A stretch of DNA of 64,000 nt, taken from NCBI GenBank assembly GCA_963717465.1, contig OY970340.1:1184001-1248000 (forward strand), in the 5' to 3' direction. The notes under the pieces were generated by a model that was given only the letters and a program-made list of their open reading frames with translations, had not been told where the DNA came from and ran no database searches. Origin of the DNA: Candidatus Bathyarchaeota archaeon. GTDB lineage: Archaea; Thermoproteota; Bathyarchaeia; Bathyarchaeales; Bathycorpusculaceae. The translations under genes and the position numbers were made by a program. Of this stretch, positions 15,704 through 63,500 are shown piece after piece (position 1 is the stretch's first letter; every line of letters starts with the position of its first letter).

Positions 15704-15705
15704 AA

Positions 15706-18828: not shown

Positions 18829-18832
18829 TAAA

Positions 18833-20368: not shown

Positions 20369-20380
20369 AGGTGAAAACTC

Positions 20381-22148: not shown

Positions 22149-22255
22149 ATGTGTCTTGTAAGCTGATTTTATTGCAATTTTGTAAACGTAGTTTAATGAA
22201 ATGCCCTATTTTGTGATAAAACATGAAACAGACTTAGAATTTAACCTTAAATATC
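22149..22255 (+). promoter_or_regulatory. Island regulon promoter, copy 1
   Basis: WTGTG, TGCAA(+24), TGTAAA(+32), TTGTG(+62), TTAAATAT(+98). Confidence 0.8.
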
Positions 22256-22291
22256 AATTAGGAACCACGTTATGTCGGAGTTGAAAAAAAA

Positions 22292-23866
22292 TTGAGAACT
22301 GGAGCAAATATAGCTAGAAGGTATACTCGCCCTATAGCAACGAGAGAAGAATTAATGACAATCCATACTGCTGCAATGTTTCTATTGGAAAAAGTTGGAG
22401 CCGGGGGTATTACTCCTAAACTTCAAAAAGTCTACAAGGATTTAGGCTGCACCATCGCTGACGAGAAGAAAGGAATCGTAAAGATACCTCAAAATCTTGC
22501 AGTTGAAGCAATAAATGCAATACCAAGTGAGCAGGTTTTGCCAGGTAGGACGCCAGAAAACGATATTCTGATGAATGCCGGAAGTGGAAGAACTTTCCGT
22601 GGAGGTTTCGGCATCATGGCTCTATATTCAAAGTTGAATACAGATAACTACCATTTTGAATTCAGAGACTGTGTTGACGCTGACAATTGGAGAGAACAGA
22701 AGATTGTTGAGTACTTCCCAGAGTACGACATGACAAGCCCAATTTTCCTGCCGATGGACTTGGCGGAAGCTGGTTTGCCCGTTGATACTCATGACCTTAA
22801 CAGCACTATTCAATGCAACACGAAGCACATTTGGCACATTGACGCGATTGACCACATCGAATGTTACACTGATTTGGCTGCTGAGGTTCTTGGAGGCATA
22901 GAAGAGCTTCAAAAGAGACCGTTCATTACTAACCATGGTGATACACCAGGTTTAGTTTATGGCCAAAAGACCAGTGACCGAATGAGTGGAACGTTGGAAG
23001 GTTGGGAAAAGGGTAGGCCTTTGCTTATAGATCATACTGATGTTTGCATACCTGGGTTCCAAGGTCCATGCACCTTAACTGGAGCTTACGCAGTGACTGT
23101 TGCCACATCCGCATCGATGGCAGTAGGTTTAGCCCTTGGAAAGAATGGAGTTGCAAAAGGACATATCCCTGTAATGACCTACGACCTAGTAATGCCTATG
23201 GATCCATACACTCAAATGCTATGCGCTTGTGCAGATTCATTCAGTAAAATGCTGGCTTTGCACGTAAACTTCTGGCACAACAACTATAATTTACCAAAAG
23301 CTACCATGTGGCCCGCATGTAACGTTGGAGGTACAGCAGCTGGTGGAGACACGCAAGCAGGCCTTCTAATTTACCATATGTTTAACGCCCACCAATCCGC
23401 TACGGATCAGTGTGGAGTTTGGTCCACAACTGTAGGTCCAAACGGAATCTGGCCCGACGGCTACGCGATAGCTGCTGAACTGCTTAAGATGCTTTCGTTC
23501 TATTTCAAAGATTTAGACTTTTCTCCCGAAGCTTATATGCAGGAAGGGTGGCTTGCTAAGGGTCCAAGAGGCGACTTCATGAAGGATAAATACACTCTAA
23601 CACATATGGTTGACACTGGCTTCTATCCTATGCGTCATGGTTATGGCTTATGGGAGTTGAGGCAATATCTGCGTTGGATCGAAGATAAACTTGGAATAAA
23701 TGACCGTGCACACGCTTTAACAAACAAGATCGTTAAGGAGTTCCCTGCCCCACTACCACCAAAAGATGTAGCTGACAGAATGCATGCAATAATCGCTAAA
23801 TACGACAAGATGTACCAGATTGGCGGCTACACAGTTGACAAAGTAGGAACTGGTGCAAGATTCTAA
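22292..23866 (+). CDS. Divergent MttB/MtgB-family (trimethylamine methyltransferase superfamily) methyltransferase, no in-frame TAG
   Basis: IHTAAMFLLEKVG, GPCTLTG, KGPRGDFM..TL; followed by a corrinoid protein. Confidence 0.75.
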   Translation: MRTGANIARRYTRPIATREELMTIHTAAMFLLEKVGAGGITPKLQKVYKDLGCTIADEKKGIVKIPQNLAVEAINAIPSEQVLPGRTPENDILMNAGSGRTFRGGFGIMALYSKLNTDNYHFEFRDCVDADNWREQKIVEYFPEYDMTSPIFLPMDLAEAGLPVDTHDLNSTIQCNTKHIWHIDAIDHIECYTDLAAEVLGGIEELQKRPFITNHGDTPGLVYGQKTSDRMSGTLEGWEKGRPLLIDHTDVCIPGFQGPCTLTGAYAVTVATSASMAVGLALGKNGVAKGHIPVMTYDLVMPMDPYTQMLCACADSFSKMLALHVNFWHNNYNLPKATMWPACNVGGTAAGGDTQAGLLIYHMFNAHQSATDQCGVWSTTVGPNGIWPDGYAIAAELLKMLSFYFKDLDFSPEAYMQEGWLAKGPRGDFMKDKYTLTHMVDTGFYPMRHGYGLWELRQYLRWIEDKLGINDRAHALTNKIVKEFPAPLPPKDVADRMHAIIAKYDKMYQIGGYTVDKVGTGARF

Positions 23867-23890
23867 GGAGACAAAGAAGAAGGAATCTTT

Positions 23891-24544
23891 ATGGTAACTA
23901 AGGCTGAAGTACTTGAGCACCTCGCTAAAGCAATTATTGATTATGATGAGGATAAGGCTGTTGTAGCGGCTAAAGAGGCTGTTGAGAATAAGCTGGAGAT
24001 TATGGATGCTATCGAGAAGGGCTTATCCGTGGGCATCAAAGAAGTTGGTGACCGCTTTGGCCGCTTCGAATATCCTCTACCCTACGTGATTATGGCTGCT
24101 AATGCGATGACTGCTGCAGTTAATTATCTTAAGGAAAAGTATCCCAAAGACAAGTTGCCAAAGGCAAAAGGAATAGTTGTAATTGGTACAGCGTTTGGTG
24201 ATATTCACAGTATTGGCAAGAACTTGATTGCTGATATGTTGCGTACTGATGGCTTTGACGTTTATGATTTAGGTGAAGAGATTCCGACTGAGGATTATGT
24301 GAAGAAGGCTGAGGAAGTTCATGCTGATATTGTTGCAATGGGCGCATTGATGACTAGCAGTATGTCCTATCAAAGAGCGCTGGTTGATACATTGGTTGAG
24401 CGTGGTCTTCGTAAGAAGTACAAAGTGCTTGTTGGCGGTACTCCGATGACTGATGATTTCTGCAAGCGGATTAAGGCTGATACTTGGGGTGCAGACTGCG
24501 GTGACGCAATCAAGAAAGCACGAATGCTCGTAGGCAAAACTTAA
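23891..24544 (+). CDS. Methyltransferase corrinoid protein (MttC/MtaC-like)
   Basis: Cap domain, GDIHSIGKN, DLG, VGG. Confidence 0.92.
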   Translation: MVTKAEVLEHLAKAIIDYDEDKAVVAAKEAVENKLEIMDAIEKGLSVGIKEVGDRFGRFEYPLPYVIMAANAMTAAVNYLKEKYPKDKLPKAKGIVVIGTAFGDIHSIGKNLIADMLRTDGFDVYDLGEEIPTEDYVKKAEEVHADIVAMGALMTSSMSYQRALVDTLVERGLRKKYKVLVGGTPMTDDFCKRIKADTWGADCGDAIKKARMLVGKT

Positions 24545-24614
24545 GCAAACCAACACAAACCAAAAAATCCAAAAACAAACATCTCTCCTCTTTTCTTTAA
24601 TGAAAAAAAATTAG

Positions 24615-25034
24615 GTGGGTAAAGTTATGTCGTATGAAGAAAAGCTGTTGAATTTCGTCTATAAGCTGTACTCTATGCTCGGCGATAGCCCAGCAGTTAG
24701 TGAGCCGTTAAAAGATCAAGAAAAAGATGTAGTGGTTGAACTTCGTATCGAAGATGTTCCTGATGTTGTATGGCAGATTGGTTCAAAAAATAAAAAGTGG
24801 CTTGTAAATAAAGGTGCAACCGATACGCCAAGTGCAGTCCTGCAATATCTTAAGGTGAAATACTTAAATGATTGGTGGGCAGGCAAAATGAACTCTGAGA
24901 CATTGTTCTCATCAGGAGCTATGCAGATCGTGGAGGGCTCGTTTGATGATCTTATGTTCATGGCACCTGTGGAAGAACCGTTGAAAGTTGCTTATCAAAA
25001 GTTGAAAGGCGAGTTTCCAGGTCTACCAGAGTAG
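24615..25034 (+). CDS. SCP2 sterol/lipid-binding domain protein
   Basis: Size and the pattern 'W.GKMN..TLF.SG.M.IVEG'. Confidence 0.6.
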   Translation: MGKVMSYEEKLLNFVYKLYSMLGDSPAVSEPLKDQEKDVVVELRIEDVPDVVWQIGSKNKKWLVNKGATDTPSAVLQYLKVKYLNDWWAGKMNSETLFSSGAMQIVEGSFDDLMFMAPVEEPLKVAYQKLKGEFPGLPE

Positions 25035-25134
25035 CCTGAAGGACTACAAATTCCCATACACTTTTTTTTTCTTTAACCAGCATGATTTATCTATCCACGA
25101 ATCAATAGGAAAGATCTCAAAATGCAGCAAGAAA

Positions 25135-25470
25135 GTGAGACCCAGTATGATAGAAATCTCGGGAAAGAAGATGATAGAAAATAAATGGGTAGAGAAAGAG
25201 GAAAATTTTAAAGTTTTGTTTTCTCTGATGTCGTTTGGCAATAAAAGTGATAGGGCGATTTCCAAAATATTAGGTTTTAATAACTCAATATTTTCTAAGA
25301 GAAGAAAGCTGGAGAAAATGGGTTATGTAAAAGAATATACTATAATACCCGACTTCTGTAAATTAGGATTCGAATTCGTCGTATTTACGTTAGCTTCAAC
25401 TACTAATGCTGTAAAATCAACGCAAATTGCTGAATTTTGTGCATTGACAAATAAACATCCTCAATGTTGA
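25135..25470 (+). pseudogene. Truncated paralogue of the adjacent wHTH regulator
   Basis: ENFKVLFSLM..KSDRAISK...KEYTIIPDF matches both domains of 25725-26882 but stops after KHPQC. Confidence 0.7.
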
Positions 25471-25724
25471 TGCAAAAATAGCCTCTATTAACGTCTAAAT
25501 TAGTGTGTGCCAAGGATGGTATAATAATACATGATGAGAACTATATCTACTTTTTAACGTGCATAGAACATGATTGATTGTATCATAATCAAATAAGCAG
25601 TTGCTGCAAAAGTCATCGATTTTTTATTTTAACTCGCAGAAATGGCAGACAAAAAAAAGACAAAAAACTTAAATATAGTAAGGGCTTAAGTATAAATACT
25701 TTACGAGTAGTCTGTTGGAATAAA

Positions 25725-26882
25725 ATGATACAATTTGACGGGAAGACGCAAGAAAACCTTAAAGTTTTGTTTGCTCTAATGGCGTTAGGTGGTAAGAGCG
25801 ATAGGGCGATTGCTAAAGCTCTTGGGGTAAGTAATACAGCATTGTCTAGAAGAAGGAGGAAGCTGGAGCAAGAGGGCTATATAAAAGAATACACGATAAT
25901 ACCTAACTTTCATAAAATGGGACTAAATGTTTTCGTATTCGCATTAGCCTCAACTACTATGTGCTTAAAGCCAGAGCAAGAAAAAGCATTTGCTGAATTG
26001 ATGCAAAAACATCCTGAAATAATCTGCATGCTAGAGGATCAAGGCTTAACAGGAACAAACTGGGCTGGCATAACAGTACACAAGAGTTACGATGGTTTTA
26101 TTGAAATGTATAAAGAATTGCAAAAAGAAGCGTCTAGTATTCCACAAGTGCCTCTCTCAGTGTATACAGCTGTTTTTAATTCTGGCAAACAACACCCAGT
26201 ACCATTTTCGTTACGAAACATGGAACCGCTATTTCCAGGTGTCAAACTACTTCCAACTATTACCCCATCTTTGAGCGAGAAGGATACCTCTGAAGAAAAG
26301 ACGCAAGATAACCTGAAAGTTTTGTTTGCTCTAATGGCTCTAGCAGGTAAAAGCGATAAAGTGATTTCCAAAACTCTGGGTATGAGTAACTCAGCATTAT
26401 CTAGAAGAAGAAACAAGCTAGAGCAAGAGGGCTATATTCAAGAATACACTATAATACCTGATTTCCACAAAATGGGACTGGAAGTTATTGCGATTACATT
26501 AACCTCAACTTCTGGTACGATAACACAAGAGCAACTTAGAAATGTTCGTGACTTGGTGAGCAAGCATCCTGAAGTATTGTGCGTCCTTGAGGATCGAGGC
26601 TTAGCAGGAACAAACTGGGCTAGTATAACAGTACACAAGAATTATGATGGTTTCATTGAATTGTATAAACAAGTGGAAGAAGAATTATTGGCTTTGCATC
26701 GGGGTCAACAAATACCTCCTTATGAAACGCATACGATGATGTTTCATACTAGCAAACTGGCTCCAAAACCCATCTCATTACGAGACATTGAATCAATATA
26801 CAATACTGTCATTACTCTTCAAACTGCCAAACAATCGCTTCGTGTTGGGACTAGGAGATTTGATAAAAATAAAAGCTGTTGA
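25725..26882 (+). CDS. Lrp/AsnC-like wHTH regulator with internal tandem duplication
   Basis: Two ~175-aa units, each LKVLFALMAL..KSD..LSRRR.KLEQEGYI.EYTIIP.F.KMG...GTNWA.ITVHK.YDGF. Confidence 0.8.
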   Translation: MIQFDGKTQENLKVLFALMALGGKSDRAIAKALGVSNTALSRRRRKLEQEGYIKEYTIIPNFHKMGLNVFVFALASTTMCLKPEQEKAFAELMQKHPEIICMLEDQGLTGTNWAGITVHKSYDGFIEMYKELQKEASSIPQVPLSVYTAVFNSGKQHPVPFSLRNMEPLFPGVKLLPTITPSLSEKDTSEEKTQDNLKVLFALMALAGKSDKVISKTLGMSNSALSRRRNKLEQEGYIQEYTIIPDFHKMGLEVIAITLTSTSGTITQEQLRNVRDLVSKHPEVLCVLEDRGLAGTNWASITVHKNYDGFIELYKQVEEELLALHRGQQIPPYETHTMMFHTSKLAPKPISLRDIESIYNTVITLQTAKQSLRVGTRRFDKNKSC

Positions 26883-27011
26883 TACTTAGAATGACCTGGC
26901 TGAATGACTTAATGTTCAGAATGTAGTTTTTTAATTTTTAAATTGATACTTGTTTGCGCTTTTCTCTTTTTTATTATTTAATTGAAAACCTAAAAAAGTA
27001 TGAATTTCAAA

Positions 27012-27118
27012 TTGTGTCTAAAAAACTGTTTTTCATGCAATTTTGTCAATGGCAATCGTTGAAAGCCTTATTTTTGTGTCGAAAGTCGAAGCTGACCTAC
27101 AATTTAACCTTAAATATC
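27012..27118 (+). promoter_or_regulatory. Island regulon promoter, copy 2
   Basis: Same boxes at +24/+32/+62/+98. Confidence 0.8.
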
Positions 27119-27174
27119 CATTAGACCGCATTTTTACTCTTGTGTTAGAAACACGTAAAAAATAGGGGATAAAA

Positions 27175-29490
27175 ATGAGTGAGGTTAAAATTGAAACAGA
27201 CCCAATGAAGTACGATGGAGTGCATAGATGCATTTGCGGTTTCTGCAGTACTGGAACTTGCTTATTGCTTGAGACGGTTGAAAACGGAAAAATAACTAAG
27301 GTTGAACCTGACTGGGAAAGCCCGTTTAATCCCGGGCCCTACTGTGTAAAATGGAAGTATGCTTTGGAATACATTTATCATAAGGATAGGCCGACCTATC
27401 CGCAAAAGAGAGTTGGTAAACGCGGTGAGGGCAAGTGGCAACGGATATCATGGGAACAAGCGTTCAATGAAATACACGCCAAGATAAAGGAAATAACTGC
27501 AAAGTACGGTGCCGAATCAATGTGTGGCTTCTTTGGCACCGGCCGAGCCGCACATTTAGGTCAGGGAATGTACCGATACTTTTACTTATCAGGCAGCCCA
27601 AACATTGCTTCTGGGCAGGTCGAGCACTGAGATGGACCCACGTTCGCAGCGTTAACGACAACCTACGGCGTGGGAACTACGAATCCAATGATGATTCCAG
27701 GTAAGACGAAAGGTATCTTTAATATTGGCTCGAATCCTATTGAGTCTTGGACGTTTGCGTGGCCAATATACCTTGCGGCCTTGGAGGCCGGCGCGAAAAT
27801 GCTCTGTGTCGATCCCAGATTTACGGAGACTGTGCGAAACAGTGAATTATGGCTAGCCATCAGACCGGGAACTGACACTGCTCTAATGATGGCCCTAATC
27901 AACGTTACCATTGAGGAGGACTTGTACGACCATGATTTTGTGGAGAAATGGTGCTTCGGATTTGACAAGCTCAAAGAACGAGCTAAGCAGTATACACCTG
28001 AGAAAGCTGCAGAAATAACATGGATTCCAGCTGAGAAGATCAGAGAGGCGGCAAGGTGGATAGCGAAAAATCATCCGTGTGATTTTCCATATGGTTACGG
28101 CATCGAATCATCAGGCAGGAACTCTATGAGCAATGTCCGATCAAAATACATTATGCCTGCGATAACTGGTAACATTGACATAGAAGGCGGCGATTACCTA
28201 CATGCAAGACCGAAACAACATAATGGTCTGGAAGCCATGGTACCATCAATAAATTTGACGGATCAAAGCATATTTCAGAAAATGATTGGGGCAGAAAAAT
28301 ACAGAGCCGGAACCTTTACGTTAATGGCTTTGCTTATGGAGGCAGGAATGGATAAAGGATATTGGAAGGGCTCTCCAGTTCCTGCGTTCTCGGGACCAAA
28401 TTGGCCCGCCACTATAGATACTATACTCACGGAAAAGCCCTATCCGATTAAGGTTATGATTGCTGGTGAAACAGGTCCGATGAGGTGTTATCCGAACATC
28501 AAAAAGGTATACGAGGCTATAAAGAAGCTTGATCTCTTCGTCTACATTGAAGACGCTCAAATGACACCCGAAGCAATGCTAGCAGATTATCTATTACCAA
28601 CCACCAGTCAATTTGAGAGACCTTCTGGCTATTCGACTATTACAAGTCAAGGCGCCATGGAATTTGAGATTGCAGGTGATCGCGCATTACCCAACAAAAT
28701 ACCCGGCTTGTGGGACCTTAAAGATGACTGGAACGTGTTCCGCGAACTCGCAGTGCGCTCAGCTCCTGAGAAAATTGAAGAGGCATGGCCTTGGAGAAAT
28801 TTGGAAGAAGCGCAGGATTGGTTCTATGAAAACACAGGCTATACGCGTCAGCAAATTGTTGAAGATTGGAAAGGTGTGGCACCATGGGAGCCCAGGTTTA
28901 AGAAGTATGCGGAGCCAGACCCAGAGACAGGTCAGCCAAGAGGCTTTGGAACATTTTCAGGCAAGGTTGAACTCTACAGCCAGATACTTGAAAAACTTGA
29001 CTATAATCCGTTGCCGTACTATACTGAGTGTGCTTGGACGCCGATCAGCGCTCCTGACATTGCTAAAGACTATCCATTAATCATGACTAGCGGAGCCAGA
29101 TTCCAGGAGGCGCATCATGGCGAACTACGACATATCAGCTTGATGCGAAAGCTACGGCCTGTTCCACGTGTCAAGATGCACCCACTGACAGCGCGTAACA
29201 TGGGCATTGGAGATGGTGAATGGGTTTATATCGAGACGCCACTTGGCAGATGCAAACAGACAGTACGGTACGATTTCGGAGTAAACCCGAAGATAATTGA
29301 TCCAGAGCATGGCTGGTGGAGACCCGAACTACCCGCTGAAGGACCAACACTATACGGCTGGCAAGACTGGAACATTAACGTCACCGTGCCTGATGACCCA
29401 GAGCATCTTAGCCCAGAGCTTGGTGCATGGTGCTTCAAGGCTAATCTTGCAAAAGTATACTCAGCAAAAGTTGGACCTACGGGGCCATAA
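27175..29490 (+). CDS. Mo/W-bisPGD (DMSO reductase family) oxidoreductase with in-frame TGA at 27628 (candidate Sec)
   Basis: N-terminal CGFC..C..C [4Fe-4S], RPTYPQKR, VDPR, RPGTD, ADYLLP, C-terminal HPLTA domain; both listed ORFs are in one frame separated only by TGA. Confidence 0.85.
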
Positions 29491-29670
29491 GAAGAAAAAT
29501 CATAATCTTCTTCTTTTTTTGTTCTTGGTTTTCAATTAATTGTTTACTAACAAATGAATAATAATATATTAAAAAAGAAACCCATAAATCAAATTCCAGC
29601 TATTTCTGTTTCTTACTTGAATTGAATTTTTTTCATAATATTCATAATACTCCCAAAAGTAGATTGTAAT

Positions 29671-29776
29671 TTGTGCTAAGGAAGATGCTTTTAACGCAAA
29701 AACGTAAATACTATTTAGTGAATTGCATAATTTTGTAAATATAGCTAAAACAGGTTAAAATCTAATTTTAAATATC
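29671..29776 (+). promoter_or_regulatory. Island regulon promoter, copy 3
   Basis: TTGTG, CGCAA(+24), CGTAAA(+32), TTGTA(+62), TTAAATAT(+97). Confidence 0.75.
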
Positions 29777-29851
29777 TATCGATCATATACAAGTTCAATT
29801 TTGAGCTAAGGAAAACAAAAAAGGAGTTTACAAAACTAGAAGGAATCTGAA

Positions 29852-31877: not shown

Positions 31878-32119
31878 AAGTTCTCACTCTTTTTCTTTTT
31901 TTCCTTAAAATTGGCAAACTTGCTCACTATTTAATTATCTTCTATGTCCATTTTAACGACCACGCCCGTTATTAGTCGCCTCTGTTGTCATCGCAACTGC
32001 TATGGGTAATAGCATAGAAAAGTTCAATCATTCCCCTAATAGATTGCAATTTCGTAAGTTAAAAGAACTTATTTACTTAAGGATGCCAGATTCAGTAAAG
32101 CTAAAATGGTGATTTCATT

Positions 32120-32226
32120 ATGTGTCAGAAAAACTCTTTATTTTGCAAAAATGTCAACAGCAACTGCTAAAATGTCTTCTTTTGTGAGAAAAGCTTGAAA
32201 ATCATTTATAATTTATCTTAAATATC
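32120..32226 (+). promoter_or_regulatory. Island regulon promoter, copy 4
   Basis: Same boxes at +24/+32/+62/+98. Confidence 0.8.
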
Positions 32227-32311
32227 AATCGTGCTGAATAAATTTTCCGTTAAAGAAGGAAATTAGGTTTAAGAGTGTTTGATGACCGGTTCGCTGGGGG
32301 AGGTGAATAAC

Positions 32312-32698
32312 ATGGTGAAATTTGGAACATTGGAATACTATCAGGTACACGCTGACGTTTTAAACAAGGATCCAGACTGGATAAAGGGAGCCTTTACCAG
32401 TAATTTGCTTTATGTCTTTTCTGATGTGCTTGGTGCAGACGGGCAGCCGAAAGCTTTCCTTTTGAAATTTGATAAAGGGAAAGTTACAGCTAGTGAAGCT
32501 AAAGCTTCTGATATTAGTTCCAAGGAAATCGAGTTCGCTCAAACCGCAAATTATGCTATGCATGTAGGTATTGCTAAAGGTGAAATTAGCGTGCAGAAAG
32601 CTAAATTAAAGCTTAGCATGATAAAAATAATGAAGCACCAAAAGACTTTTATGCGAATACTTGAGACCGCGCAAACACTTAAAGATGTTGAATACTGA
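32312..32698 (+). CDS. SCP2 sterol/lipid-binding domain protein
   Basis: GGAGGTGA SD before ATG 32312; paralogue of 39771-40169 (KFGT.EYY ... DVEY). Confidence 0.7.
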   Translation: MVKFGTLEYYQVHADVLNKDPDWIKGAFTSNLLYVFSDVLGADGQPKAFLLKFDKGKVTASEAKASDISSKEIEFAQTANYAMHVGIAKGEISVQKAKLKLSMIKIMKHQKTFMRILETAQTLKDVEY

Positions 32699-32895
32699 GA
32701 TAAGAAGTCTTAAATTGATCCCCTTGACGGAACTTAGACGTTAACGATTGCGAACAGTCATCTCATCTTATAACATTTCTGTGCTCTTTTTGGAAATGTT
32801 GCCCAAATAGAATAAGATTTGAAAGTAGCAAATCAAAAATTGCCTTTTCTTTTTGCTTTAAGGTCGATCAAGTAAGTCCAAAATTACATTTCAAA

Positions 32896-33002
32896 TTGTG
32901 CTAAGAAAGACGTTTCTAGTGCAAAGATGTAAATCATTATAGAATCAATACTTCGTTTTGTTGCAAAAACTTGAGCAGACTCATAGTCTATGCTTAAATA
33001 TC
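32896..33002 (+). promoter_or_regulatory. Island regulon promoter, copy 5 (no convincing ORF downstream)
   Basis: Same boxes at +24/+32/+62/+98. Confidence 0.75.
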
Positions 33003-33096
33003 CACTAAAACGTGATAATTAAGAACAAAATAAATTCGATCAAAAAATTGAAATCATGACTTACCAGACATGAAGGTGCTCACGCTAGAAGTAACA

Positions 33097-33214
33097 TTTT
33101 CACCTTTAGATGGTGGCTATAGGGACGGACTCCCTCCTCCTATAGCCATCGGTAGTGGCTGTAAGGGAATCTCAAACCTCTGTTCCCTGCTCTCGTTCTC
33201 TTATAGCCACTACC
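33097..33214 (+). ncRNA. Putative structured sRNA with two conserved-stem hairpins
   Basis: GGTGGCTATAGG/CCTATAGCCATC (33112-33150) and GGTAGTGGCTGTAAGGGAA/TTCTCTTATAGCCACTACC (33151-33214). Confidence 0.55.
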
Positions 33215-33342
33215 AGCCGGGTTGTCTATTTTGTTTTATAAGAGAGTCTCTTTTTCTCAGAATTTGTAATTTAAAAACCTGTCACAGTTTATTTTTCTTT
33301 TGCTATTTAATTTTGAACGAAGCCTAAAAGTTGCTCTGTAAA

Positions 33343-33448
33343 TTGTGCCCAGAAGAGCATTTTTTTTGCAATAATGTCAATGATGATTAAATAAGTGCCT
33401 TGTTTTGTGTCGAAATACGAAAAGAGCTTGCAATTTACCTTAAATATC
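33343..33448 (+). promoter_or_regulatory. Island regulon promoter, copy 6 (no convincing ORF downstream)
   Basis: Same boxes at +24/+32/+62/+97. Confidence 0.78.
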
Positions 33449-33494
33449 AATCATGCAACTCCTTTAACGCGCTGTGATTCATCAAGTCTCGCGC

Positions 33495-33572
33495 AATTCA
33501 CCTCGGTGGTAGCTATAGGAAGCTTCGTAAAATCAATCTCCTATTATCTATCTCCTTCCTGTAGCTACTACC
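33495..33572 (+). ncRNA. Putative structured sRNA hairpin 3
   Basis: GGTGGTAGCTATAGGAAG/CTTCCTGTAGCTACTACC, 18-bp stem with a compensatory change. Confidence 0.55.
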
Positions 33573-33843
33573 CGCTTGATTGCTAATTCTTTTTAGAATG
33601 AACTTTAATTTAGAATTTGCGGTTTAAAGACTTCCAACATGGCTTTTCTTTTTGCTTTTACAGCACATTAAGGAAAGCCAAAAGTGGTTGAACACTTTTT
33701 AAGTGAATGCTCGTTTTACAGCTAGAACCAGACTAACTTGGTTTATCTAAATATCCAGTTAGGGAGAAGAAATATAGAACCTGAAAAATCAGCTTATGCT
33801 AACTTTATTACACTCTTGAACAAAGCCAAAAACCATTTTAATT

Positions 33844-33948
33844 TTGTGCTAAGAAAGATGTTTTATATGCAAAAACGTCAATCGTTACAAAATAAATACT
33901 TTGTTTTGTGGCTAATGTGAAAAGAACCTTGCAATTTAACTTAAATAT
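33844..33948 (+). promoter_or_regulatory. Island regulon promoter, copy 7
   Basis: Same boxes at +24/+32/+62/+97. Confidence 0.78.
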
Positions 33949-33980
33949 TGTAGCAAGACCCTCTAACGTGCGGCCGCTAT

Positions 33981-34035
33981 TAACCTTTAGGTGGTGGCTA
34001 TAGGATAGCCAAAGTCCCAACCTGTAGCCACCATC
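33981..34035 (+). ncRNA. Hairpin 4 (sRNA or 5' leader of the SDR gene)
   Basis: GGTGGTGGCTATAGG/CCTGTAGCCACCATC, 15-bp stem. Confidence 0.5.
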
Positions 34036-34066
34036 GCAAAAAGTGGAAAAAGAAGGCTTAAAAGTA

Positions 34067-34833
34067 ATGAAGAAATTAGAACAGAAAGTATCCATTATAA
34101 CAGGCGCTGGTTCCGGAATGGGGAAGGCAATCGCGTTATTGTTTGCTTTGGAAGGAAGTAGAATTGTAGCAACTGATATTGATCAGAATAGGCTAAATGA
34201 TCTTAAAGCTGAAATTAACCAGATAGGGGGAGAAGTAACCACTCTTCTTTCTAATATTGCGAAAAAAGAGGACGTGGAAAATATGATACAAGTGTCAACT
34301 GCGACTTACGGGACACTAGATATTTTGGTAAATAATGCTGGTGTTATGGATAGTTTTGGTGCTGTGCATGAAGTTGATGATGCTACATTGGAAAGGTTAA
34401 TGAAAATTAACTTTGAAGGTCCGTTTAGGGCGATGCGTGCAGCTATAAAAGATGTGTTTTTGCCAAAAAAATCTGGCGTTATTGTTAATATCTGCTCAAA
34501 AGCTGGTATTTGCGGGGGGCAGGCGGCGCGGCTTATACTGCAAGTAAATGGGCTCTAGTAGGATTAACGAAAAATACAGGTTTTCTATACTCTAATTCAG
34601 GTGTACGGTGTAATGGAATAGCTCCGGGCAGCGTTGTAACAAATATTCAACAATCAATAGATCCAGATAAAATGGGCATGTTTGCTGACGCGATGAACGC
34701 TGGATTAGTTATAAACCCAAGAGGAGGCGATCCTGAGGAAATAGCAAGAGTTGCCTTATTCTTAGCAAGTGATGATTCTTCATTTATAAATGGCGTAGTT
34801 ATTCCAGTTGACAGTGGCTGGAGCGCATACTAA
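34067..34833 (+). CDS. SDR oxidoreductase (HSDH-like), frameshift in G-run ~34514-34519
   Basis: TGAGSGMG and NNAG in the first ORF; YTASK and VDSGW in the second. Confidence 0.85.
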
Positions 34834-34919
34834 AATAATTCTTTATGCATGCGGAAGCTAACTCTTTTATTATTTTTAAATTGTGCTTCTTATTATCGGC
34901 TACGAAGTAACCAGAATGT

Positions 34920-35025
34920 ATGTGCTTATGAAGCTATTTTTCTTGCAAGACTGTGAATGAAAACTGCTGAGATACTTTAATTTGTGTCAGAAAACTAAGT
35001 GCGTTTTATAATTTAACATAAATAA
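34920..35025 (+). promoter_or_regulatory. Island regulon promoter, copy 8
   Basis: Same boxes at +24/+32/+62/+98. Confidence 0.75.
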
Positions 35026-35060
35026 TACTCTTCCTGAATAAAATTCGTCATTAAGATAAA

Positions 35061-35726
35061 TTGCATGATACTATGGGGAATTGGAAAACCTTGGAAATAG
35101 ATGATCTTAGAAAAGTAACAGCAGAAGTAAAAATGGAAGAAATGGAGAAATTAACCGACGAACTCATCAAGCAAGGCGTTGACCCCGTTAAAATACTGGA
35201 AGATGGCATAGTAAGAGGCCTCTACGATTTAGGAGAGAAATTTGAAAAACGAAAAGCATTCATCCCAGACTTAGTAAGAGGTGAAAAAGCAGCCAGAAAA
35301 TGCATTGAAAAACTCACAAAACTTCTTCCAACGGCGCAGTCTGGCAAAATTTCTAAAAAAATCGTTATTGGAACAATGCTTAGCCAACATAACATTGGCA
35401 AAAACCTTGTAAGCACCTTCCTATCAATCAACGGTTTTGATGTCATTGATATTGGCGAGAAGAAGGAGCCGTGGGATTTCTATGAAAAAGCCGAGCAAGT
35501 TCACGCAGACATGATTGCGGTCTCATGCATCTTTTTGCCATCCCTGACTAAGTTCCCAGAGTTGATCGACGTATTGAAGCAAATGAAAGTACGCGACAAA
35601 TACAAGGTCATTGTAGGCGGGACTTTAACCTCAAAGAAATGGGCTGAAGAAAACGGTGCCGACGGCTGGGGCTTTAACGCAAACGAAGGTGTACAAGTAG
35701 CAAAGAAACTTCTCGGCGTAGCCTAA
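35061..35726 (+). CDS. Methyltransferase corrinoid protein (variant B12 motif SQHNIG)
   Basis: Cap domain, HNIGKNLV, GFDVIDIG, VGG, GADGW. Confidence 0.88.
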   Translation: MHDTMGNWKTLEIDDLRKVTAEVKMEEMEKLTDELIKQGVDPVKILEDGIVRGLYDLGEKFEKRKAFIPDLVRGEKAARKCIEKLTKLLPTAQSGKISKKIVIGTMLSQHNIGKNLVSTFLSINGFDVIDIGEKKEPWDFYEKAEQVHADMIAVSCIFLPSLTKFPELIDVLKQMKVRDKYKVIVGGTLTSKKWAEENGADGWGFNANEGVQVAKKLLGVA

Positions 35727-36318
35727 TAAACCAATGAGTATCTGAATAAAGCTTGTGAAAAAAAAGGTTATTTGAATGTCATCAAACACAAAAGAAACAT
35801 CAACAAGTGAAATAAAAGAAAGCAAAGAAGCTGAAGAACTCAGGAAAAAATATTTAAAGAAAATTCGCAAAATGCCCGGAATTTGCTAATTCTCACTAAC
35901 AATCGAACAATTGCTTTTATTTGCTGCCTGTTTGCATTATCACGCGTGCAAACTGCTAGTCTGTATCGTAGCGTTGTCTAAACGCCGTTAGCCTAGTTGC
36001 CAAGAATAGAAACGTAAGTCCAAGCATACTTATTTCAACATGCAAATCTCAATAAAGCGATGGCTAATTAGGTCACATTTGTCTTAGGGGGAAGTGCTAA
36101 TTCTTTTTGCATAGCCACAACTGAGGACTTGCTTATTTACTCTTGAAACAAGAGATCTTTGATCCTGCCATTCAATTGAAAAGGGAATACTGAACTGCGT
36201 AACCTTTTGTAGCGGCTGTAAAGTCGGCTGATTCAGCAAAGCTGAACGAAACAGGATTATTCAGTTAAAAAGCATAAAGAATTTGCGGGTTCATTCTTGC
36301 TAAAAGTTCAAAATAAAA

Positions 36319-36424
36319 TTGTGTCTAAAAAATTGTGTTTCATGCAAATATGTGAATGACGATTGCCTAATTGCTTTATTTTGTGATGAAAGCCGAGAAT
36401 GGCTTATAATCTAACTTAATTATC
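36319..36424 (+). promoter_or_regulatory. Island regulon promoter, copy 9
   Basis: Same boxes at +24/+32/+62/+97. Confidence 0.8.
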
Positions 36425-36448
36425 ATCCAAATCGCATAACTTGAGCCA

Positions 36449-38173
36449 GTGATAGAAATGGTCGATAAAAATAATCCTAAGAAATGGGATATTGAAACTG
36501 ACGTTGTGGTGGTAGGGTCCGGGGCTGCCGGTTTATGTGCAGCTAACGTAGCAGCTACTGAAGGAGCGAAGGTTGTTGTGCTGGAAAAGACTGATCAGAT
36601 CGGTGGAGCAACAGCGTTGTCAGGAGGCGGATTGTGGGTGCCTAACAATAAATTTCTCAGAATGGGCTTCAAAGTTGAAGTTTATGATCCGGTTAAAAAG
36701 ACTTGGAGCTTTAAGCGTATCGATGGTGATGTAGGCAGAGAGATGGCTATAAGGTACTCAAAAAAGTGTTCAATGGGATATACAACTGATGAACTCATTG
36801 AAACTTACGTTGATAACGCATGGAAGATGACTGACTATCTTGAAGATCATACACGCGTAAGATGGGGTCATACGCGGTTTATGCCTGAATATTACCCAGA
36901 ATGGGATGGAGCGATAAAAGCAGGCAGAACCATAGAATCACTACTTGTTGATTGTAAACAGATGCCAATGGAACTTGTTGAAAAGCTTCGAATATCGCCA
37001 CAAGGCTTCCCAATGCTGATTGATGAAAATGACAAGTGGGGTGGACTTAACGCGATAGCCACTCCTGGCGCATGGGATATGGAAGCCTTACTTGAAAGGG
37101 GAAATAATCGATTAATTGCACTGGGACTTGGCTTGGTTGGATCGTTGGCTTGGTCGTGTAGAGATAAGGGAATCGACATTATGCTTGAGACTCCTGCAAA
37201 ACACTTAGCGGTTGAGAAAGGTCGAGTTGTTGGTGTAATCGCAGAGAAGAAAGGAAAAGAATTGGCAGTTCACGCTAAGAAAGGCGTAATCTTGTGCGCT
37301 GGAGGCTTCGAATGGAACCCGATAATGACCAAGAGCTTTACAAGAGGTCCGCTGTTTGGACCTATGTCTGGACCCGGTAATGCTGGCGATGGGCAACGTA
37401 TGGGAATGGAGATTGGAGCACAAATGTCGCAGATGCAGGATGCATGGTGGTTCCCAACAACTTACGTCGATGGAGATTCATATGAGGGTCATCCGTCTTA
37501 CAGAATGATTATGTATGATAAGTCTACTCCCGGAACAATATGGGTTAACAAGTATGGGAAGCGGTTCGTTGATGAAGCCATTAACTATAGAAGTGTTATG
37601 AGAGCATTATCCAATTACGATGCCCTCAAACATGACTGGTCAAATTATCCAGCATACATGATCGTTGATGAAGCCTGCCGCAAAAACTATATGGTTGCAC
37701 AATTTCCGCCAGGCGAAGAACTGAGATCACCTCCTTTTACAAAAGGCAATACACTAAGGGAGTTGGCTGAAAAGGTAGGCATAGACCCTAATGGATTGGA
37801 GGAAACAGTGAAGAACTTTAACAAGTTTGCTAAGGAAGGTAAGGATCCAGAGTTTCATCGAGGTGAAAGCTATTATGACTGGTTCTACGGAGACAAAAAC
37901 TTTAAGGGTCCAAGTCCATGCCTTGCACCTCTTGAGACACCGCCGTTCTATGCTATCGCGGTTCTTCCAGGGGTTCTTGGTACTGCGGGAGGCGTTGCGA
38001 TAAACACGAAGGCTCAGGTGCTTGATTACGACAACAAGATAATACCCGGTCTATATGCGGCTGGAAATAACACTGGATGCATTTTAGGCTGGGGTTATCC
38101 AGGTGGTGGATCTACAGTAGGGCCTGCTCTTACTATGGGATATATTGCTGCAAAAGAAATAGTTAAGGAGTAA
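36449..38173 (+). CDS. FAD-dependent dehydrogenase, 3-ketosteroid-delta1-dehydrogenase (KstD)-like
   Basis: GSGAAG, GGATALSGGGLWVPNN, G.DPEFHRGE..YD, LGTAGG, YPGGGSTVG. Confidence 0.8.
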   Translation: MIEMVDKNNPKKWDIETDVVVVGSGAAGLCAANVAATEGAKVVVLEKTDQIGGATALSGGGLWVPNNKFLRMGFKVEVYDPVKKTWSFKRIDGDVGREMAIRYSKKCSMGYTTDELIETYVDNAWKMTDYLEDHTRVRWGHTRFMPEYYPEWDGAIKAGRTIESLLVDCKQMPMELVEKLRISPQGFPMLIDENDKWGGLNAIATPGAWDMEALLERGNNRLIALGLGLVGSLAWSCRDKGIDIMLETPAKHLAVEKGRVVGVIAEKKGKELAVHAKKGVILCAGGFEWNPIMTKSFTRGPLFGPMSGPGNAGDGQRMGMEIGAQMSQMQDAWWFPTTYVDGDSYEGHPSYRMIMYDKSTPGTIWVNKYGKRFVDEAINYRSVMRALSNYDALKHDWSNYPAYMIVDEACRKNYMVAQFPPGEELRSPPFTKGNTLRELAEKVGIDPNGLEETVKNFNKFAKEGKDPEFHRGESYYDWFYGDKNFKGPSPCLAPLETPPFYAIAVLPGVLGTAGGVAINTKAQVLDYDNKIIPGLYAAGNNTGCILGWGYPGGGSTVGPALTMGYIAAKEIVKE

Positions 38174-38193
38174 AAAAGGAAAGGTGAAAAAAT

Positions 38194-39559
38194 ATGGGAT
38201 ATCTATTGTGGGAAGTCTTGGAAAGAACTAGAACTGGTCCAATCATGAAAGAAGACGAATTTGAGGTCACATATTTTCCGACGATACTAAAGAAGGTCAT
38301 CCAAGATTACAAGATCAAATGGGATGGCGAGCCAGTAATGGCAGATGCACAGATGGCTGATGCTATTTTTGAAGCTGGTATACAAGTGCTAGTTCAGTGC
38401 GGATTATACTGCAAAGATACTAAACACATAGTTAAATTCAATGAAAATGAACTGAGAGAAGTTGTCAAAACACGAAAGCATGAGGTTGAGTGGGGAACCG
38501 GCAGAGACGTGCTAAAGATGGGTATTAGAGGTCCTGAGGATAAGCAGCATCCATACTGCCTAAATGCGGGCGGAACAATGGGAAGCAACATACAAGAGTG
38601 GAGGGACGCTGTTTATCTCGCTGCTCGTGAACCGACGACAGATGGAATGATGACGGGAATACTTGAGGCGTCTTTTGGTCAGAAGTCAACGTATGCTACG
38701 CCTACTGAGTCGCTTGCTGTTCATGCTGAATGTGAGTTGATGACTGCTGGGGCGCGCGCTGCGGGAAGGCCTGGTATGTTGCTTGGTTTTCCTGAGACTG
38801 GTACGAGTATGGTTGCGTTGATGCAGGCTTTTGATCCTGGTTACTATACGCCTAAGGAACTGTATGATGCCAGTGCATATACTGCAGGACATGAGGGTAG
38901 TCGTTGATAGGCTTAATCTTGCTTACTTTGCTATGCAGCATGGGATTGTTCCGTGGCAGAGTTGTAGTCCTACGCTGTACGCTTATATCAGTAGTCCTGA
39001 GGAAGCGGCTGTTGAGGGAATGGCTCATTCGCTGGGTCAGATGGCTTATGCAGACGGGTCATTCACCCAGGCAATGAACAACACAATTGATAACCTATAT
39101 GTAGGTACAGATTGTTTTTGGACTAATTCAGCGATGGCTTTGGCTGCAGAAAGAAACATAAAGGTTCCTTGGATTTCCACCGGATTAGGATTAATGCAAC
39201 CTATGACTGACGCTGATTGGTATGCAACAGCATGTAGCTGCATTAATGCTTGTATATCTGGCATGGAAGGAATGTGGATGGTCGATGGTGGTTGCCCCGT
39301 TATCGGTGTAAGATTTGGAAGTGAATTCACACGAGCAGCTGCTGGAATAAAAGTAAGCGAAGGGACCAAGATAATAAAAGAGCTCACCAAGAAATTTGCA
39401 CCGGCTATAAAGGTATTTGACATTAGTCAAATAATGCGCAGTCTTTACTTGGACTATGACCCGGAAACTTTGAAACCTAGAAAGGAAACTGTGGATATGT
39501 ACAATAGGATGACGAAAGAGTTTAAAGACATGGGTTTTGACTACCCAACATGGGGTTAA
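38194..39559 (+). CDS. Pyrrolysine-free MtmB-family methyltransferase (EmtA-like), frameshift at ~38854
   Basis: R..TGPIMKEDEF, AD.IFEAG, AGRPGMLLGFPE (no TAG at the Pyl position), YLDYD.ETLKP. Confidence 0.8.
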
Positions 39560-39770
39560 TGAAGCCCCCATTTTTTTTGATCTAATTAATTTAAAATTAA
39601 AAAATTCTCTAATTCATTTAAAGCAGACATTATTTTCAAACACTAAGAGGGGAGCGTGCACGCGCGAGCAAGCACACATATTGATTCAGAGAAGATGGAT
39701 AACTAAGTGTGAATAGCTCACGCGGTAAGGAGGCACTTTAACCGTAGCCTTGATCTTGCTGTTTCAATAA

Positions 39771-40169
39771 CTAATATTCCACATCTGGAAGATTCTTTGC
39801 AAGCTCAGCCATTCGTGTTATAGTTTTAATGTTCTTCATCATCTTTGAGAATGGTCCTTCAATCTTGTATTTCCCAGTAACTGTTGCCTTCTGAGCATTA
39901 ATCGTTCCTTGCACAACTCCAGCCCATGTTACATAATCACCTAGGAATTTAAAGTCAACTGGATCATTCAGGTTTCCCTCTTTAACAGTAACATTCCCAT
40001 TGTCCCACGTAGCAATAAAAGTCAACGGAGTACCAAAATCAGTAATTTTGTCAGTAAAGACATACGCCCACTTCTCTGTAAGACTTCCCGCTTTCATGAT
40101 CGGATCATTACTCATCGTTTTCGCCCACAAGTCATAATATGCTTGTGTACCATACTTTACTTTCGCCAT
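39771..40169 (-). CDS. SCP2 sterol/lipid-binding domain protein
   Basis: DFKFLGDYVTWAGVVQGTINAQKA.VTGKYKIEG SCP2 pattern; GGAGGTGA SD. Confidence 0.78.
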   Translation of the reverse strand: MAKVKYGTQAYYDLWAKTMSNDPIMKAGSLTEKWAYVFTDKITDFGTPLTFIATWDNGNVTVKEGNLNDPVDFKFLGDYVTWAGVVQGTINAQKATVTGKYKIEGPFSKMMKNIKTITRMAELAKNLPDVEY

Positions 40170-40236
40170 CTTCTTGTCACCTCCTCATACTTTCCGTGTG
40201 CAGGTTTGTGAAGTTGAAAAACTATACTGTCTGATG

Positions 40237-40342
40237 AATATTTATGGTTGAATTATAGCAAGCTAATACTTCTAACACAAAATAAAGATATTTTGAGTTA
40301 CCTATTTACAAAATTGCATGAATAAAAGGTTTTTAAGCACAA
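40237..40342 (-). promoter_or_regulatory. Island regulon promoter, copy 10 (minus strand)
   Basis: Reverse complement has the same boxes at +24/+32/+62/+97, pointing to the SCP2 gene. Confidence 0.8.
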
Positions 40343-45254: not shown

Positions 45255-45264
45255 GGCGATTTAA

Positions 45265-47608: not shown

Positions 47609-47609
47609 T

Positions 47610-63497: not shown

Positions 63498-63500
63498 AAA

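Follow-up and report, generated by a model that had tools for sequence, protein, structure and literature searches.

An archaeal gene island with a member of the EmtA protein clade and a possible role in oxygen-independent demethylation of steroid-like compounds

To our knowledge, cobalamin-dependent methylation or demethylation at steroid C10 has been described in two bacterial systems only, EmtAB and AbeABC. The first is encoded by emtABCD in Denitratisoma oestradiolicum (genes DENOEST_v1_1167-1170) and Steroidobacter denitrificans, and its EmtA subunit is similar to MtmB (approximately 30% identity) and has no pyrrolysine (Pyl) codon, according to the accessible text of the two reports (10.1101/714501; PMC7448270). 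In the second, as described in the accessible part of PMC11912376, Phosphitispora sp. TUW77 uses a KstD, a 3-oxosteroid 1-dehydrogenase, to make 1-dehydrotestosterone; AbeA (approximately 40% identical to EmtA) demethylates this product by moving its C19 methyl group to AbeB, from which AbeC transfers it to a pterin ahead of the Wood–Ljungdahl pathway. The rest of the steroid serves as an electron sink and is converted to androstanediol, by reductases that this part of the paper does not name (PMC11912376). Here we describe an 18-kb gene island (positions 22148-40342; plus strand except where noted otherwise) in a 64,000-nucleotide stretch of DNA, hereafter the window, from Candidatus Bathyarchaeota archaeon (assembly GCA_963717465.1, contig OY970340.1; the genome is one contig of 3.05 Mb, and the window is genome 1184001-1248000; positions are those of the window unless marked as genome positions). 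An original prediction had placed an archaeal island for anaerobic (de)methylation of steroids or lipids here, and every gene that it listed is present where it was placed. The kind of system is already known from EmtAB and AbeABC, and we give roughly an even chance, on sequence grounds, to the reading that the island's core catalyses a corrinoid-dependent, oxygen-independent, aromatizing C-demethylation of steroid-like dienones of the AbeABC/EmtAB type, with the methyl group passed to tetrahydromethanopterin (H4MPT).

This core comprises an intact gene for a KstD-like, FAD-dependent delta-1-dehydrogenase of cyclic 3-ketones (36449-38173); a frameshifted gene for a Pyl-free, MtmB-like methyltransferase of the EmtA/AbeA clade, corresponding to the first methyltransferase (MT1) of such systems (38194-39559), which starts 20 nt beyond the dehydrogenase gene, as had been noted; and corrinoid protein 2, of the EmtB/AbeB-like type (35061-35726; Pfam B12-binding, and identity to the corrinoid proteins of related loci), which lies 2.5 kb upstream of the MtmB-like gene behind its own copy of the promoter module described below. 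Set against AbeABC as presented in the accessible part of its report (PMC11912376), the two systems share a Pyl-free MtmB-like MT1, a cognate corrinoid protein, a required dienone-making 3-oxosteroid 1-dehydrogenase, a separate second methyltransferase (MT2) to a pterin carrier, the Wood–Ljungdahl pathway and several paralogous copies, TUW77 being a strict anaerobe. They differ in that AbeABC has a bacterial host and AbeC, with tetrahydrofolate, as MT2, whereas here the host is an archaeon and MtrH, with H4MPT, is the candidate; moreover, unlike in AbeABC, the KstD-like gene here shares an operon with MT1, in a larger regulon with an MttB-like methyltransferase, SCP2 proteins, an old yellow enzyme (OYE)-type reductase, a short-chain dehydrogenase/reductase (SDR) and a selenocysteine (Sec)-containing acetylene hydratase (AH)-like enzyme.

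The MtmB-like protein was recognized by Pfam MtmB (PF05369; 4.5e-37, read across two frames). Its gene contains no TAG, and glycine stands at the pyrrolysine position of Methanosarcina barkeri MtmB (1l2q), in agreement with the Pyl-free homologue originally called. Six MtmB-family loci were found in the genome, four intact and two split, and none contains a TAG. The window copy is 80% identical to one of them (paralog A), and an intact one (paralog D) matches M. barkeri MtmB with an E value of 2e-30. Identity to most other MtmB-family representatives is low (26-30% for the MtmB-like protein): a search of 1.84 billion representatives with paralog D retrieved 554 family members at E<=1e-3 and, beyond paralog D's own cluster, the best identity was 39%, followed by 34% and below. 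Closer relatives exist nevertheless, with 94 recovered by a word-indexed search, mostly at 45-77% identity, and 36 related loci found by a scan of species genomes, in Dehalococcoidia, three Jordarchaeum/Jordarchaeales metagenome-assembled genomes (MAGs), Myxococcota, Gammaproteobacteria (including Steroidobacteraceae and Halieaceae), Binatia and others. The nearest named archaeal homologues belong to Jordarchaeales and Freyarchaeota.

The patterns used in the species-genome scan missed Denitratisoma, and a D. oestradiolicum protein (WP_145772131.1; P0337) was reached through a search with a Steroidobacteraceae protein, to which it is 65% identical. Paralog D is 43% identical to WP_145772131.1 over its full length (E 2e-136), and the window copy, with an X at its break, is 42% identical, values close to the AbeA–EmtA identity given in the accessible part of PMC11912376. 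In a maximum-likelihood tree of 42 rows (IQ-TREE), 25 rows formed one clade (UFBoot/SH-aLRT 100/100, stem 0.46) consisting of the genome's own paralogs and their near relatives, three Jordarchaeum proteins, Dehalococcoidia and proteobacteria, including WP_145772131.1; the 17 other Pyl-free MtmB-family representatives fell outside it, one (P0099) as its sister and 16 further out, and a quick tree of 67 rows agreed. The EmtA/AbeA enzymes are represented in this tree by WP_145772131.1, which, from its organism, family and clade, is most likely the EmtA orthologue of D. oestradiolicum. The comparison of the MtmB-like protein with EmtA and MtmB, proposed as a check, thus groups it with the presumed EmtA rather than far from it and, as judged from these protein sequences, archaea hold members of the EmtA protein clade. 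The accessions of the ten nearest 50% representatives and of the NCBI-sourced matches do not occur in SI Table S8 of PMC11912376, so that no row of the tree is tied to the putative EmtA/AbeA proteins that this paper assigns to MAGs. Relative to EmtABCD of Denitratisoma sp. DHT3 and D. oestradiolicum, the archaeal system has in common this clade, the identity to the presumed EmtA and a corrinoid partner of the same type beside most clade members; it differs in that EmtAB methylates estrogens with a methyl group derived from S-adenosylmethionine (SAM) in a denitrifier, as far as the accessible text of the reports extends (10.1101/714501; PMC7448270), whereas demethylation is the direction proposed here, and no EmtC- or EmtD-like gene was identified here.

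The KstD-like flavoprotein belongs to Pfam FAD_binding_2 (7.6e-68) and matched the NCBIfam model for 3-ketosteroid-delta-1-dehydrogenase (PRK12844) at 1.4e-129 and 433 bits (cutoff 789 bits). Among proteins of solved structure, the closest are AcmB of Sterolibacterium (7p18; 1.2e-82, full length, 281 bits) and KstD1 (4c3x; 3.2e-57, 197 bits). Residues Y148 and G554 align with Y118 and G540 of AcmB, which we take to have catalytic roles. Residues Y380 and Y550 align with Tyr318 and Tyr487 of KstD1, described in the accessible part of PMC8220720 as the proton acceptor and as the residue that binds the 3-keto group, respectively. All four catalytic positions to be checked (Y148, Y380, Y550 and G554) are therefore conserved, and the protein shares with AcmB and KstD1 the FAD_binding_2 fold and the Tyr/Tyr/Tyr/Gly set, with full-length alignment to AcmB; unlike them, it falls below the equivalog cutoffs, scores nearly as well against ChcC1, has an archaeal host and is operonic with a corrinoid methyltransferase. 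The residues point to alpha,beta-desaturation chemistry on a cyclic ketone and define no steroid specificity. Five KstD-like loci, three intact and two broken, were found in the genome. One copy, 75% identical to that of the window, lies directly upstream of the intact MtmB-like paralog D; another is convergent with a split MtmB-like gene and adjoins genes for an SRPBCC protein, a corrinoid protein and a split MtrH; a third is followed by SDR, SnoaL and SDR genes; and one is a pseudogene with stops. The surroundings of the intact pair D (genome 2793000-2812900) are consistent with mobile DNA, as they contain genes for a ParE toxin and type I restriction-modification along with an IS240-family transposase.

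Gene order was conserved in part, and the proposed comparison of synteny across Bathyarchaeia had a mixed outcome: adjacency of KstD-like and MtmB-like genes is seen again at another locus of this genome and in all three Jordarchaeum loci, but, with the methyltransferase found in none of 300 other sampled genomes, it is not a lineage trait of the phylum. Each of the three Jordarchaeum loci has MtrH, corrinoid and KstD-like genes (the last 52% identical) in one direction and the MtmB-like gene divergent from them (MtrH <- corrinoid <- KstD-like, MtmB-like ->), which, on sequence assignments, is a complete set of MT1, corrinoid protein and MT2 plus a predicted dienone-forming enzyme. A corrinoid gene of the type of corrinoid protein 2 (49-66% identical to 35061-35726) stands directly downstream of the MtmB-like gene in 30 of the 36 related loci; in the three Jordarchaeum loci it lies up to 2 kb away, and in the other 3 of the 36 it was not seen. 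Other island functions also recur, with an OYE-type enzyme adjoining the MtmB-like gene in two Dehalococcoidia loci and one Steroidobacteraceae locus, and the AH-like enzyme, in a cysteine form, doing so in three Dehalococcoidia loci. One Dehalococcoidales locus continues after its MtmB-like, corrinoid and AH-like genes with a thymidylate-synthase-like protein that has a pterin-binding DUF4346 (locus 13206-14177, minus strand), a possible MT2 candidate in bacteria.

From these comparisons, a route can be proposed in which the island would be one copy of a co-regulated, horizontally acquired toolkit that converts hydrophobic cyclic ketones without oxygen. The KstD-like enzyme, given its conserved catalytic residues, would desaturate a ring-A 3-ketone to the 1,4-dien-3-one, and the MtmB-like enzyme, to judge from its clade and the gene order, would move the angular methyl group of this dienone to the Co(I) of corrinoid protein 2, aromatizing the ring. 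An MtrH-type methyltransferase would then hand the methyl group to tetrahydromethanopterin and the Wood–Ljungdahl pathway; MtrH is proposed as MT2, with methyl delivery in this direction, because the genome encodes MtrH (four loci, two intact), RACo corrinoid activators (five loci) and CdhC (one locus) and because MtrH is part of the Jordarchaeum cluster. The OYE-type enoate reductase and the SDR could either dispose of electrons by reducing further substrate or prepare the 3-keto group, water-insoluble substrates would be carried by the three SCP2-fold proteins, and Lrp-like regulators would turn on all the units by way of their common promoter module. Either a true steroid or a different polycyclic terpenoid that bears an angular methyl group could be the substrate. 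Elsewhere in the window, a fused Fae/Hps-like protein of the orotidine-monophosphate-decarboxylase fold (6696-8138, minus strand) and an FmdE-like gene (3874-4449) fit H4MPT-based C1 metabolism.

Proteins with a lipid-carrier fold accompany the methyltransferases, and all three SCP2 calls of the original prediction held, each on a different basis. SCP2 protein a (39771-40169, minus strand) was identified by a hidden Markov model (HMM; Pfam SCP2 6.8e-9), and SCP2-like protein b (32279-32698; 139 amino acids) by 35% identity to it (E 1e-24). The third, a small protein of 139 amino acids (24615-25034), had no HMM or BLAST match and an hhalign probability of 0.7% against the family of the other two, and is called by fold alone: an AlphaFold2 model from a nine-row alignment (mean confidence, pLDDT, 91.7) had 44 PDB matches at E<=1e-3 in Foldseek, with SCP2 proteins on top (TM score 0.55-0.68). 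A protein of this third type follows the MttB-like and corrinoid genes in three paralogous loci, and SnoaL, CoxG/SRPBCC and CrtC-lipocalin genes also occur in paralogous loci. In Dehalococcoidales, a 151-amino-acid open reading frame (ORF) between the corrinoid and AH-like genes looks SCP2-like by eye and had no BLAST match.

The MttB-family gene that had been called is present (22292-23866), as a divergent, Pyl-free member of the superfamily, with a match that is weak and confined to the N-terminal half (Pfam MTTB 4.7e-14; profile positions 33-275 of 500, compared with 33-494 in one paralog). Its nearest PDB matches are MttB (7xcm, 2.5e-14) and MtgB (2qne, 6e-9). The other of the two corrinoid proteins, both confirmed, is encoded next to it (corrinoid protein 1, MtbC/MtgC-like, 23891-24544; Pfam B12-binding and B12-binding_2, NCBIfam pyl_corrinoid 2.3e-58). 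The pair shares with the Pyl-free MttB superfamily (MtgB 2qne and quaternary-amine enzymes) the COG5598/MTTB N-terminal half, the lack of a Pyl codon and an adjacent MtbC/MtgC-like corrinoid gene; unlike MtgB, the MttB-like protein here has very weak similarity (E 1e-14 to 1e-9, N-terminal half), is followed by an SCP2-fold protein and belongs to a lineage-restricted subfamily. Nine MttB-like loci (70-81% identity) were found in the genome, eight of them without an internal stop.

The OYE, SDR and molybdenum/tungsten (Mo/W) enzyme genes were likewise found as called (29852-31877, 34043-34833 and 27175-29490, respectively). The OYE has the two-domain FadH/BaiCD architecture, Oxidored_FMN (2e-43) plus the pyridine-nucleotide-disulfide reductase domain Pyr_redox_2, split over two frames; it matched NCBIfam FadH/OYE at 1.5e-90 and BaiCD at 5.6e-65 (219.7 bits, cutoff 825), in both cases below cutoff, and two paralogs elsewhere in the genome have full-length open frames. 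The SDR, also in two frames, matched adh_short in its N-terminal part (1.2e-33) and adh_short_C2 in its C-terminal part (2.7e-21), the latter part also matching NCBIfam models for cis- and trans-4-hydroxycyclohexanecarboxylate dehydrogenase below their cutoffs. In the 5' leader of the SDR gene (33975-34035), an element of approximately 60 nt has hairpin potential and no Rfam match, and it recurs four times elsewhere in the genome at 82-90% identity (near 126348, 2488169, 2793669 and 2987226).

Nearly all of these genes had been described as lying behind one promoter motif, and alignment of upstream regions confirmed a conserved module of approximately 112 nt ahead of eight transcription units, with the boxes aTTGTGTCtAAAAA, TTCATGCAATTTTGTnAAT and cTTTATTTTGTG and a TATA/BRE-like element, TATAATTTAACcTTAAATATC. 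An nhmmer model built from these eight upstream regions, which match by construction, found 28 sites genome-wide at E<1e-3, of which 10 are in the island. These precede the MttB-like gene (22148-22259, genome 1206148-1206259; E 6.5e-21), the AH-like gene (27011-27122; 7.2e-25), the OYE gene (29670-29781; 1.6e-16), the SCP2-like b gene (32120-32231; 3.2e-20), the SDR gene (33844-33949; 1.4e-18), the corrinoid protein 2 gene (34920-35030; 6.8e-20), the KstD-like/MtmB-like pair (36318-36428; 8.4e-24) and, on the minus strand, the SCP2a gene (40232-40342; 6.6e-17), and two have no credible ORF behind them (32895-33005, 3.2e-11; 33342-33453, 3.7e-17). The MttB-like/corrinoid-1 pair and the Sec-containing AH-like enzyme are thus in the same regulon as the core. 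Outside the island, 11 of the 18 sites directly precede genes of three of the same families (MtmB-like, two; AH-like, six; MttB-like, three), four are further orphan tandem copies and three have no clear assignment. The orphan copies stand in tandem, 350-500 nt apart, in AT-rich DNA (GC 0.35), also at genome 125754-126554; they may mark the places of genes since deleted, or may drive small RNAs.

Obvious candidates for binding this module are Lrp-like winged helix-turn-helix (wHTH) regulators; one of approximately 200 amino acids is encoded in every paralogous locus examined. In the island, a tandem of two Lrp/AsnC-like wHTH modules occupies one frame (25578-26882; Pfam HTH_24 twice), each half being 52-62% identical to the single regulators of three paralogous loci, and is preceded by a truncated copy (25135-25470) that is 51-57% identical to the first ~105 residues of the regulators, of ~200 amino acids, in paralogous loci. 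The island therefore holds three copies of one regulator in a row, two of them fused in a 434-amino-acid frame and the third cut to its first ~110 residues.

Taken together, these results bear out the predicted demethylation of steroids or lipids in part: the presumed-EmtA clade, the KstD residues, the SCP2 calls and the recurrent synteny support it, but in the island itself the MtmB-like, OYE and SDR genes carry frameshifts, the synteny is not a lineage trait of the phylum as sampled and the flavoprotein scores almost equally against ChcC1. Several points weigh against this reading. The identity of WP_145772131.1 as EmtA is inferred, and its accessions occur in none of the papers searched. 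The lineage of the clade has only two characterized members, both from specialised steroid degraders, and most clade members come from marine and sediment MAGs and have no assigned substrate. The flavoprotein falls below every NCBIfam equivalog cutoff (for example, PRK07843, 403 versus 788 bits), and its score against ChcC1, a 4-oxocyclohexanecarboxylate 2-dehydrogenase (412.7 bits, 1.9e-123; cutoff 1000), is near its KstD score. A KstD-like gene stood beside the MtmB-like gene in 0 of the 33 related loci outside Jordarchaeum, many of which have short flanks, and the window contains no MT2 gene. Finally, three genes are broken, which the original prediction had overlooked: the MtmB-like gene by one extra base at 38857, where intact paralogs read GYYTPKNCMMPVH; the OYE gene near 31040-31047; and the SDR gene inside a run of six G (34514-34519). 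Several paralogs are broken too (KstD-like, two of five; MtmB-like, two of six; MtrH, two of four; AH-like, at least three), and the system may be decaying.

Random sequencing error is an unlikely cause of these breaks because they are confined to toolkit genes: the other 46 kb of the window, with 36 ORFs, showed no split gene and, among 130 ORFs of seven paralogous loci inspected by reading, splits occurred only in KstD-like, MtmB-like, MtrH, OYE and AH-like genes. The only public sequencing run found to match was a DNA run from a peat metagenome (share 0.05), and no RNA run was listed. It contains relatives rather than the source, and 417 of its contigs, 85-99% alike and from relatives or paralogs, covered 29 of 30 bins; no indel was seen at the three frameshift sites among the peat-contig matches listed, which, coming from relatives or paralogs, give no verdict on the frameshifts. 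The working copies are probably paralogs elsewhere in the genome, such as the intact KstD-like/MtmB-like pair at genome 2801937-2805042.

Conventional methylotrophy is the alternative that survives best, although we consider it unlikely: the MtmB-like and MttB-like enzymes would use small N-, O- or S-methyl compounds, and the flavoproteins, SDR and W/Mo enzyme would be unrelated to them except through a shared regulator. The Pfam and NCBIfam names of the two enzymes are indeed those of monomethylamine and trimethylamine methyltransferases, the MttB-like/corrinoid-1 pair, with nine copies, is the most amplified methyltransferase pair, and related contigs occur in peat, which is expected to be rich in methoxylated aromatics. 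Pyl-free MttB homologues of related uncultured archaea have been read as quaternary-amine methyltransferases, according to the accessible part of PMC11291895. This alternative sits poorly, however, with an MtmB-like protein that is distant from most of its family, has no catalytic pyrrolysine and falls in the presumed-EmtA clade; with the operonic linkage of KstD-like and MtmB-like genes, 20 nt apart here and linked again in Jordarchaeum; with three lipid-carrier-fold proteins and the SnoaL, SRPBCC and lipocalin genes, which suggest hydrophobic substrates; and with an island in which no amine- or betaine-specific transporter or pathway gene was found.

The near-equal ChcC1 score raises a second alternative, which we regard as distinctly improbable, namely that the KstD-like enzyme aromatizes cyclohexanone-type rings of monocyclic or small alicyclic ketones, as ChcC1 and ChcC2 do, and that the methyltransferases act on methyl or methoxy groups of phenolics. 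ChcC2 also matched the flavoprotein (8.3e-79), the C-terminal part of the SDR matched the 4-hydroxycyclohexanecarboxylate dehydrogenase models, and the KstD catalytic residues would fit any alpha,beta-desaturation of a cyclic ketone. Yet the best solved relative of the flavoprotein is the sterol-active AcmB (281 bits, with KstD1 at 197), the ChcC and ChcB scores are all far under their cutoffs, the linked methyltransferase falls in the steroid C10 clade, and soluble acids need no SCP2 carriers. Slightly less probable again is the opposite direction, as in EmtAB, with a phenolic A ring methylated to a dienone that the KstD-like enzyme and OYE would then degrade. The clade member of Denitratisoma methylates in vivo and EmtAB is reversible in extracts, as the accessible parts of PMC11912376 and PMC7448270 report, and the OYE and the hydratase-like Mo/W enzyme could continue ring-A degradation; methylation is, however, endergonic and SAM-driven in Denitratisoma (PMC7448270, accessible part), no SAM-regeneration genes were found in the island, and MtrH in the Jordarchaeum cluster and CdhC in the genome fit methyl delivery to the Wood–Ljungdahl pathway, as in AbeABC. 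Least probable of all is that the toolkit is what is left of a transferred gene set, decaying and without function, or that its breaks are assembly errors, for although there are three frameshifts in 18 kb, further breaks in paralogs and orphan promoters without genes, intact paralogs exist (four MtmB-like, three KstD-like, eight of nine MttB-like and at least four AH-like with the TGA as their only stop), the promoter module is well conserved, the Sec codon is kept in six of seven AH-like paralogs, and no split was seen in non-toolkit ORFs of the window or the seven paralogous loci.

That Sec codon was also overlooked in the original prediction. The AH-like gene (27175-29490), for an enzyme with a W/Mo bis-pyranopterin cofactor (bis-PGD), matched AH of Pelobacter acetylenicus (2e7z) at 3.2e-105 over residues 19-762, and it contains an in-frame TGA (27628-27630) that aligns with the cysteine taken as the metal ligand Cys141, which we assume to bind tungsten. 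The similarity to P. acetylenicus AH is full length and includes an N-terminal Fe–S cysteine motif, no evident signal peptide and a retained metal-ligand position; the two differ in that the ligand is cysteine there and TGA-encoded, predicted Sec, here, and in that this genome has at least 11 such loci. Where AH has CDINC, the archaeal protein has CSTGTC, with serine, just behind the second cluster cysteine, replacing the aspartate next to the Fe–S cluster, presumably Asp13, a functional residue of AH by the cluster, and the enzyme is probably AH-like rather than an acetylene hydratase. TGA occupies the same codon in six of seven AH-like paralogs examined, four of which have no other stop, and cysteine stands at this position in three Dehalococcoidia homologues.

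The genome encodes machinery for Sec, with two tRNA-SeC genes, SepSecS (6e-120) beside one and a fused PSTK-aSelB gene (730 amino acids) beside the other, the latter near SCP2, GcvH and corrinoid genes. By eye, the 3' untranslated regions of the seven AH-like paralogs share no structure resembling a Sec insertion sequence (SECIS), and a search of 12 same-genus genomes did not recover SepSecS. A survey of the Asgard selenoproteome lists seven families, and the accessible main text contains neither the word molybdopterin nor the word acetylene (PMC11227280). On sequence evidence, the AH-like family of Sec/Cys pairs is a candidate new archaeal selenoprotein family, and the Sec trait of this genome is a candidate for lateral acquisition; besides the window gene, the regions concerned are genome 845695-847097 and 2827363-2829723. 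At genome 904785-904882 (minus strand), ARAGORN also reported a tRNA to which it assigned no type, with the four-base anticodon ccgg, which could be an intron-bearing tRNA or an artefact.

The toolkit was rare in, or not found among, sampled relatives. At E<=1e-60, none of 300 other genomes sampled from the phylum, six from the same genus and 10 from the same family among them, yielded an EmtA-like protein. Archaeal AmoA was found in 43 of 301 sampled genomes of the phylum, and the thermosome is 59-62% identical to that of Jordarchaeum genomes; on these two grounds an Asgard origin of the genome, considered in view of the nearest named archaeal homologues, was rejected, and a place in Bathyarchaeia is plausible. 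Among 60 genomes of the family, a KstD-like protein occurred in one (39% identity, partial), the MttB-like subfamily in none and an AH-like protein in six (36-43% identity). This genome, by comparison, holds six EmtA-like, five KstD-like, nine MttB-like and at least 11 AH-like loci. Because of this scarcity in relatives, the toolkit appears to be accessory, and it was probably acquired by transfer and then amplified in this genome.

Directly upstream of the island (12237-21844), and with no copy of the promoter module, 11 genes encode a Nuo/Mrp-like membrane complex; three of its subunits are antiporter-like, and another, a 30-kDa/49-kDa fusion, bears a NiFe-hydrogenase-like signature. At 44338-48131, QueF-like, DUF4231/SLATT, TGT-like, QueC and ThsB-TIR genes form a cluster that looks like a 7-deazaguanine/TIR defence island, and a BsaWI-like restriction endonuclease gene stands beside a DNA methylase gene at the window's end (62721-63998). 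An Rfam scan of the window returned one tRNA and no other match.

Full-text searches returned no paper linking Asgard archaea with 3-ketosteroid dehydrogenase and cobalamin, and for AbeA they returned three estrogen papers and no others. Four features are new here: the system is archaeal and has its dehydrogenase in the operon, its MT2 is likely to be MtrH, it has a regulon of its own, and it shows massive lineage-specific amplification. The analysis defines a compact regulon (promoter module, Lrp-like regulators, SCP2 proteins, Sec-containing AH-like enzyme and MttB-like methyltransferase) and names intact gene pairs. More tentatively, and with some doubt, we suggest that archaea (this member of the Thermoproteota and Asgard Jordarchaeia) might use cobalamin, and no oxygen, to demethylate and aromatize sterols or triterpenoids of plants and bacteria in anoxic soils and sediments, with the angular methyl groups entering the H4MPT Wood–Ljungdahl pathway as C1 substrate and with Sec-W/Mo hydratase-like and MttB-like systems attacking further positions of the same skeletons. 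If so, 'anaerobic estrogenesis' would span two domains of life. Ring-A aromatic steroids and triterpenoids of early diagenetic origin are known from geochemistry, and such a pathway would provide an enzymatic basis for them, with the prediction that abundant archaea of sediments and soils may obtain methyl groups from steroids or terpenoids, with aromatic products left behind.

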